In this document: piece after piece, positions 7,031 through 7,966 of the stretch | Layout: each line of letters starts with the position of its first letter | How positions within the stretch are numbered: position 1 is the first letter of the stretch | NCBI RefSeq assembly: GCF_001677475.2 | Contig: NZ_CP015229.1 | Strand: one strand, 5' to 3' | Length of the DNA stretch: 64,000 nt | From: Escherichia coli | GTDB lineage: Bacteria; Pseudomonadota; Gammaproteobacteria; Enterobacterales; Enterobacteriaceae | The notes under the pieces: model-generated | What the model saw: the letters and a program-made list of their open reading frames with translations, nothing else | What the model was told of the DNA's origin: nothing | The model's database searches: none | Program-made: the position numbers and the translations under genes

Positions 7031-7957
7031 TCAGCATGACGCATTTGAGAATGTTGAATTTACAATTGCCGACTCAGGCACGGCGGTAAGCCGCCAGTTT
7101 TTGACGGCTGACTGAAGGATTTGCTCGACGCTGAAATCCTGCCAGTGTGTTTCTGTCTGCTGACCCAAAAATTGAAGCGCGGCGATTAACACCGGGCGCG
7201 GATCGCCTTTCGGTAACGCAGGCGCATGATTCTGCTTGGAAAGTTTAGCGCCTTGTGCGTTAAGCGCCAGCGGTAAATGAATGTAATCTGGCTCCTGCCA
7301 GCCAAAAAGTTGGTACAGCGAGATTTGTCGCACCGTCGGTTCAATCAAATCTGCGCCACGGACAATTTCGCTCACGCCCTGGAAGTGATCGTCAACCACC
7401 ACCGCCAGGTTATAGGCGAACAAACCATCACGGCGATGAATAATAAAATCTTCCCGCGCCAGTTTTTCGTCGGCGTGAATAATACCGCGCAACAGATCGG
7501 TAAACTGGGTGACCGGATGCTGCTGGCGGATGCGTACTGCGGCGTTTTCTGAACCATGATGTAATTCACGGCAATGACCGTCGTAAATACCGCCAATGCT
7601 GTGAATACGCGCACGCGTACAGGTGCAGTAATAACTTAGCCCTTGCTCACGTAACCAGGCGAGTGCTTCGCGATAGGCGTCATGACGTTGCGATTGCCAG
7701 AGAACATCGCCGTCCCAGTGCAGACCGTAATGTTCCAGCTGGCGCAGGATTGTCTCTGCGGCACCGGGAACTTCACGAGGCGGGTCGATATCTTCAATGC
7801 GTACCAGCCAGCGACCTTGCCGGGCGCGTGCCTGTAGATAGCTACCAAGCGCGGCAATCAGAGAGCCAAAATGAAGCTCGCCGGAAGGAGAGGGGGCGAA
7901 GCGACCAATATAGTGTGTGTCTGTCATCTCGTTGAACAAAAAATAAGGCGGGAGCAT
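7031..7957 (-). CDS. gluQ: glutamyl-queuosine tRNA(Asp) synthetase
   Basis: Class I aaRS-like catalytic domain (GELHFGSL); first ATG at 7957 lies inside the dksA terminator hairpin, alternative in-frame Met at 7927. Confidence 0.9.
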
Positions 7958-7966
7958 TTCCCGCCT
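7933..7966 (-). terminator. intrinsic terminator downstream of dksA that overlaps the gluQ start
   Basis: Inverted repeat AGGCGGGA/TCCCGCCT (7946-7966) followed on the minus strand by UAUUUUUUGUU. Confidence 0.65.

Follow-up and report, generated by a model that had tools for sequence, protein, structure and literature searches.

Between dksA and gluQ, on the minus strand of an Escherichia coli genome, a strong hairpin and a run of uridines stand in front of a reading frame whose first ATG lies within the hairpin itself, and this raises the question of where the translation of gluQ begins and how a gene placed behind what looks like a transcription terminator comes to be expressed. In this study, we have analyzed the junction within a stretch of 64,000 nucleotides (contig NZ_CP015229.1), hereafter the window. 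The best explanation, to which we give a probability of about 90%, is a leaky internal terminator of dksA, with gluQ made by read-through and translated from the AUG at 7927. The architecture and the true start of gluQ were already published in 2012 by Caballero et al. for the dksA-gluQ-rs junction of Shigella flexneri (BMC Microbiol 12:226, PMC3542578), and the start was reconfirmed in 2026 (PMC13245402). Beyond the 2012 paper, the present work extends the comparison to 76 junctions, shows that the loop ATG is confined to Escherichia and that a Shine-Dalgarno sequence (SD) is lacking nearly everywhere, and rejects a stem covering the start. The hairpin, its conservation, the Escherichia-only loop ATG and the SD-less start come from our analysis; for co-transcription, for the lack of any further promoter, for the activity of the terminator and for the N-terminus of the protein we rely on the S. 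flexneri and E. coli literature.

The gene order on the minus strand of the window (sfsA, dksA, gluQ, pcnB) is the usual one in Escherichia. The DksA of the window is 100% identical to that of the E. coli VCSW7 locus (WP_001155227.1), and in 5,424 E. coli genomes the matching region is annotated as dksA. The product of gluQ, as judged from full-length similarity and from the curated cut-offs passed, is GluQRS (YadB), the tRNA glutamyl-Q(34) synthetase: it aligns over 298/298 residues with the crystallized protein (PDB 1nzj/4a91, E = 1.9e-197), and it scores 616 bits with the NCBIfam equivalog NF004312 (cut-off 453) and 380 bits with TIGR03838 (cut-off 277). At the nucleotide level, the best match to window positions 7000-8650 among 5,424 complete E. 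coli genomes reaches only 96.8% over 1.65 kb, and from this value the window seems to derive from an Escherichia lineage without a close representative among these genomes; the GluQ of E. albertii shows 94.3% protein identity to that of the window.

Some further observations concern the flanks of the junction. Orthologous annotations place the start of pcnB 60 nt past the gluQ stop, where the window (6969-6971, minus strand) reads ATT, corresponding to a non-canonical AUU start, and the list of open reading frames for the window contains for pcnB only a longer TTG-initiated frame, from 6992. The sole promoter-like site of our scan (TTCTCA-17-TATGAT, 7023-7051, minus strand) is found within the 3' end of gluQ, just 5' of pcnB. 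In the case of dksA, an E. coli N-terminomics table reports an internal start at Met32, giving a 120-aa proteoform (PMC13245402), and the same ATG is present in the dksA of the window at 8354-8356 (minus strand).

Read on the minus strand from 7966 to 7946, the hairpin has the sequence AGGCGGGA-AATGC-TCCCGCCT and is followed by TATTTTTTG. Its stem starts 27 nt 3' of the TAA stop codon of dksA, on the same strand as this gene, and in a consensus scan it consists of eight pairs, six of them G-C, closed by a loop of 5 nt, being the strongest terminator-like site within the 1.8 kb scanned. The hairpin alone has a folding energy of -14.5 kcal/mol, and the 86-nt junction reaches -25.3 kcal/mol vs -14.4 +/- 2.8 kcal/mol in dinucleotide shuffles (z = -4.0), with 0/200 shuffles as good. 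A G+C-rich stem with a short loop, a U run directly 3' of it, a position beyond the stop codon, with the same orientation as the gene, and a structure kept in evolution, all of which are found here, characterize intrinsic terminators, and we regard it as very probable that the hairpin and its U-tract form the Rho-independent (intrinsic) terminator of dksA; 3'-end mapping data for this terminator were not found in the literature searched. The U-tract is at the same time the U-rich stretch immediately 5' of the real gluQ start. The coordinates of these elements are collected in Table 1.

Table 1. Features of the dksA-gluQ junction in the window (all coordinates are window positions).
Feature	Position	Strand	Description
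dksA CDS	7994-8449	-	151 aa; TAA stop 7996-7994 included
Terminator hairpin	7946-7966	-	very probable Rho-independent terminator; 5' arm 7966-7959 AGGCGGGA, loop 7958-7954 AAUGC, 3' arm 7953-7946 UCCCGCCU
SD-like AGGCGG	7961-7966	-	would be the SD of the loop ATG; lies within the stem's 5' arm
Loop ATG	7955-7957	-	first codon of the 308-aa ORF; middle three bases of the loop; not used as start
False ten-codon N-terminal extension	7928-7957	-	really loop, 3' arm, U-tract and 5' leader
U-tract	7936-7945	-	TATTTTTTGT as DNA, UAUUUUUUGU as RNA; 8 T in 10 bases
True gluQ initiation codon	7925-7927	-	18 nt past the stem; without Shine-Dalgarno
gluQ (gluQRS/yadB) CDS	7031-7927	-	298 aa + stop

A second terminator-like site, GGCTGTAATTAGCCAGCC followed by ATCTGTTTTT, is found on the opposite strand at 7986-8003 (plus strand), overlapping the dksA stop codon; read on the minus strand, it amounts to a 4-bp hairpin around this stop. 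It is probably due to chance, since its sequence differs in isolate AF16.

The evolutionary record of the junction was followed by taking 80 dksA loci, one genome per species, in 74 of which gluQ follows dksA; a total of 76 dksA-gluQ junctions were analyzed, and the 27 of Enterobacteriaceae type, window included, were aligned. Hairpins were searched by windowed folding, as a finder based on perfect stems and a strict T-tail missed several junctions. The core of the stem, GGCGGG/CCCGCC (window 7965-7960 and 7952-7947; alignment columns 82-87 and 96-101), is identical in 27/27 junctions, and thus the hairpin is not a product of chance. These 12 bases show zero G-U wobble variants, in the context of flanking intergenic sequences that can barely be aligned, while the outer pairs of the stem alternate among A-U, C-G and U-A, with four of them changing on both sides, and the loops vary. 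At the level of the species, 5,423/5,424 E. coli genomes show 97-100% identity over the 111-nt junction, and in one of them the identity to the window is 100%; in the outlier, isolate AF16, the loop reads ATTAC, and both the hairpin and the downstream ATG are kept.

A strong structure is present in every one of the 76 junctions. The strongest local structure has a median energy of -20 kcal/mol vs -10 kcal/mol in shuffled intergenic sequences (Wilcoxon p = 5e-14), and the median distance from its end to the start codon is 19 nt. In Erwiniaceae, Yersinia, Photorhabdus/Xenorhabdus, Serratia, Shewanella and Vibrio/Photobacterium, a different strong hairpin occupies the same place. The hairpin is followed by a T-rich tail in most junctions from Enterobacteriaceae, Shewanella and Vibrionaceae, whereas this tail is often absent in Yersinia, Photorhabdus and Erwinia/Pantoea. 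In Yersinia, Photorhabdus, Xenorhabdus, Serratia and Erwinia, hairpins of about -18 to -26 kcal/mol usually have no T-run after them, and hairpins of this kind may not act as classical intrinsic terminators in those lineages.

The beginning of gluQ is a separate matter from the hairpin. A first, sequence-only reading of this DNA had proposed a hairpin with a minus-strand U-tract between the two genes, which is confirmed here at 7966-7936 by its energy and by its invariant core; it had also placed the first in-frame ATG of gluQ (7955-7957) inside the stem, and although this codon is at that position and is the first one in frame, it belongs to the 5-nt loop. The second in-frame ATG follows 30 nt beyond the first one, with no stop codon between them. 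In the S. flexneri study, the first predicted AUG was likewise assigned to the bulge (loop) of the terminator and a second one was noted 27 nt downstream, and the N-terminal sequence obtained by Edman degradation of GluQ-RS, TDTQYIGRFAP, corresponds to a start at the second AUG and a protein of 298 aa (PMC3542578). As a T7 overexpression construct was employed for this sequencing (PMC3542578), the experiment could miss a minor 308-aa isoform. Recently, N-terminomics of E. coli K-12 (TRAINSPOTTER) described for gluQ a single initiation site, with the peptide MTDTQYIGR and no SD proxy; this site is labeled "N-terminal truncation (10aa)", shortening the protein from 308 to 298 aa, and its row is without Ribo-seq support, whereas the start given in databases has no row at all (PMC13245402). 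The annotation made by PGAP in orthologous loci is also of a gluQRS of 897 bp and 298 aa, and the crystallized YadB (PDB 1nzj, 4a91) has 298 aa, its first residue being residue 11 of the long frame. Among the family models, the broad NF004314 starts at residue 11 of the long frame and the broad TIGR03838 at residue 16. The alignment of the narrow NF004312 (NCBIfam) already sets in at residue 6, so this model seems to carry part of the false extension. The K-12 MG1655 record (NC_000913.3, 159186-160112) still gives a gluQ of 927 bp and 308 aa, beginning in the terminator loop. Thus, the Met at 7927, which the sequence-only reading had offered merely as an alternative, is the real initiator; the start is not buried in the hairpin, as had been claimed of the first ATG, and the 308-aa frame is an annotation relic.

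The distribution of the two codons among genomes agrees with this assignment. The loop ATG appears only in three Escherichia rows of the 27 (the window, E. coli VCSW7 and E. albertii), the remaining 24 Enterobacteriaceae loops reading AGTTTCT, AGTCTCT and such, and it was already noted that E. fergusonii keeps the terminator without a Met in the loop (PMC3542578). The top of the stem has the form GGCGGGAG-YYY-CUCCCGCC in most genera and GGCGGGAA-AUG-CUCCCGCC in Escherichia, which points to an ATG that arose from a derived change opening the top pair. A 5-nt loop would contain an in-frame ATG by chance in about 1.6% of hairpins, and, being confined to Escherichia, the loop ATG needs no special explanation. 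The downstream ATG is found at the aligned position in 23/27 Enterobacteriaceae junctions and at most one codon away in two others; in most of the loci outside this set, the distance does not exceed six codons. Among the junctions compared, the real gluQ start is nearly everywhere devoid of an SD, with a median energy of +0.6 kcal/mol for the duplex with the anti-SD vs -7.4 kcal/mol for the dksA starts of the same loci; the absence of an obvious SD for the second AUG had also been pointed out by Caballero et al. (PMC3542578).

The expression of gluQ can be traced to the promoters of dksA. In S. flexneri, a single mRNA covers dksA and gluQ-rs, as observed by RT-PCR, and a fusion without the dksA promoters, whose insert began at dksA +58 and ended at the fifth codon of gluQ, showed only baseline reporter activity, from which it was concluded that gluQ-rs has no promoter of its own (PMC3542578). 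Reporter activity increased 10-fold when the intergenic region was deleted and more than 2-fold when the stem was mutated (PMC3542578). As the effect of the stem mutations is little over 2-fold, vs 10-fold for the deletion, part of the effect may not be related to termination. In the window, a consensus scan for promoter-like sites between dksA and gluQ, which is insensitive as it also missed the known dksA promoters, gave none; the conclusion that gluQ has no promoter rests mainly on the published promoterless fusion. These functional experiments belong to S. flexneri and E. coli rather than to the strain of the window, whose locus is about 97% identical to that of E. coli over 1.65 kb. The dependence of gluQ on read-through of the dksA terminator, as the sequence-only reading had anticipated, is borne out by the baseline activity without dksA promoters and by the effects of the deletion and of the stem mutations. 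The same reading had regarded an independent promoter past the hairpin, combined with initiation solely at 7927, as evidence to the contrary: initiation is indeed solely at 7927, but such a promoter is absent, and the 18 nt available leave no room for it.

Taken together, these data suggest how the junction would work. The promoters of dksA would drive both genes as an operon, and the hairpin between them would be an internal attenuator that leaks. From the way in which intrinsic terminators work, most polymerases would halt in the U-tract, at about 7940-7937 and so before the start codon at 7927, yielding a dksA-only mRNA, and a minority would read through and carry the promoterless gluQ. GluQRS, of 298 aa, would then be translated from the AUG located 18 nt past the stem. 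This SD-less codon is probably reached by way of the unstructured, U-rich leader, through ribosomal protein S1 or standby binding, for example, or else with the help of ribosomes finishing dksA. The published construct retained an upstream translated ORF (PMC3542578), so that coupling of this latter kind would not show in it. The AUG in the loop would be a by-product of the Escherichia-specific change at the top of the stem, and not an initiation codon.

Three other accounts of the junction have to be set against this leaky terminator. An own promoter for gluQ, in which case the hairpin would solely end the transcription of dksA, is left some space by the insensitivity of the consensus scan, as a weak promoter inside dksA is possible by sequence alone. 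It is nevertheless extremely improbable, given that the stem and the gluQ start codon are separated by just 18 nt without a -10-like hexamer, that the S. flexneri fragment extending back to dksA +58 showed baseline activity (PMC3542578), and that any promoter 5' of 7966 would still face the terminator. The use of the loop AUG as a real minor or conditional start, with a melted or unformed hairpin exposing the SD-like 5' arm and giving rise to a 308-aa isoform, draws on the duplex of AGGCGG (7966-7961) with the anti-SD, which at -5.2 kcal/mol is far better than the +1.5 kcal/mol of the start at 7927-7925, and a "possible Shine-Dalgarno" was remarked at this site by Caballero et al. (PMC3542578). 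The reading frame is open from 7957, the long form is the one annotated in K-12 MG1655, the alignment of NF004312 reaches back to its residue 6, and E. coli, E. albertii and the window all retain the loop ATG. Yet the bases of AGGCGG are paired in the hairpin, which holds them together with the loop ATG, and their spacing to this AUG is of only about 3 nt; Edman sequencing and N-terminomics detected the short N-terminus alone, and the crystallized YadB is the short form. Moreover, the loop ATG is missing from all 24 non-Escherichia hairpins and from isolate AF16, and the ten extension codons are wholly explained by the 3' arm, the U-tract and the leader. All this makes such a start highly improbable. 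A start codon or ribosome-binding site sequestered by the hairpin (translational occlusion, in the manner of an RNA thermometer) was considered as well and rejected, as the loop ATG is unconserved and the experimental N-terminus lies at the downstream Met.

The third account places the obstacle at the true AUG, proposing that a helix between CAUC.ACGUU (about 7981-7972) and AACG.AGAUG (7933-7925) hides it in the read-through RNA, thus adding translational repression to termination. This extended helix is found in both the minimum-energy and the centroid folds of the window, where the pairing probability of the AUG is 0.95 vs 0.60 with the upstream flank shuffled, only 1/60 shuffles being as high. 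The effect does not extend to the other genomes: over the 27 junctions, the pairing probability of the AUG is 0.60 as observed vs 0.59 when shuffled (Wilcoxon p = 0.71), the helices are 46-63% paired vs an overall 40-49% after sliding of the 3' partners, and in K-12, which has AAAGAG for AACGAG, the upstream flank is without effect (0.87 vs 0.88). The extended helix, unconserved by pair counting, by the alignment-free pairing test on the 27 junctions and by the K-12 fold, was therefore rejected, and we hold an occluded AUG of this type to be very improbable.

A different issue, which takes the leaky terminator as its basis, is whether read-through is regulated. The hairpin might be an attenuator set by the growth phase, by a bound protein or small RNA, or by the levels of ppGpp, DksA or NTPs, tying the GluQ modification of tRNA(Asp) to stress. 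In stationary phase, the junction RNA of S. flexneri was reported to increase 20-fold, with dksA and gluQ-rs RNA each increasing only 1.3-fold, and a binding protein or a riboswitch-like circuit was put forward as possible by the authors (PMC3542578); the 20-fold figure, however, derives from band intensities in end-point RT-PCR (PMC3542578). The invariant 12-nt core amid unalignable flanks and the position of the hairpin, which is kept in Enterobacterales, Vibrionaceae and Shewanella, would fit with such a role, although the invariance of the core fits a binding factor no better than it fits simple selection to keep a G-C stem intact. Wholly different hairpin sequences in other families argue against a sequence-specific ligand. 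There is also no conserved antiterminator pairing, the lone candidate for an extra stem being unconserved. An Rfam scan of 7800-8150 (E <= 10) matched no family, the best score of 10.7 bits (E = 6.9) standing against a gathering threshold of 37.8, so a riboswitch or other known RNA family was rejected, the match being at chance level only. No follow-up on gluQ-rs regulation after 2012 was found in the literature searched. On balance, a regulated attenuator seems unlikely, if by no means far-fetched.

The closest known system is the S. flexneri terminator itself (PMC3542578), in which genes, hairpin and both candidate AUGs coincide with those of the window and which led to the same conclusions; we see no difference of substance between the two, the window carrying the orthologous element in another genome of the Escherichia group. 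The terminator 5' of dnaG and the read-through of recA-recX, both cited in the same study (PMC3542578), are likewise cases of a Rho-independent terminator between co-transcribed genes, with the downstream gene expressed by read-through, and for dnaG an unusual ribosome-binding site was described too by the authors (PMC3542578); the genes and the hairpin sequences in these cases are, however, unrelated to those of dksA-gluQ. At 18 nt, the start of gluQ is unusually close to the stem, so that the U-tract becomes part of the translation initiation region. With the preQ1 riboswitches of queuosine genes, the junction shares a terminator hairpin directly 5' of a queuosine-related gene and a report of junction RNA that varies with the growth phase, but, unlike them, it lacks an aptamer-like conserved sequence and shows neither a conserved antiterminator pairing nor an Rfam match. 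The search for a riboswitch made by the authors at dksA-gluQ-rs was negative as well (PMC3542578).

From the point of view of annotation, the 308-aa gluQ model, which is found in K-12 MG1655 and seemingly in NF004312, begins in the loop of a terminator and should be read as 298 aa. The arrangement in which an SD-less AUG is located 18 nt behind a stable hairpin is conserved over several bacterial orders. A more far-reaching proposal, which we regard as speculative and rather improbable, is that the hairpin and the SD-less start constitute an ancient regulatory module, extending from Enterobacterales to Vibrionaceae and Shewanella, in which read-through would be actively controlled, either by a factor recognizing the core (GGCGGGA/UCCCGCC) or by ppGpp, DksA or UTP acting at the U-tract, with the U-tract doubling as a landing site for gluQ ribosomes. 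If such active control were true, tRNA(Asp) would receive more glutamyl-queuosine specifically in stationary phase or under stress.
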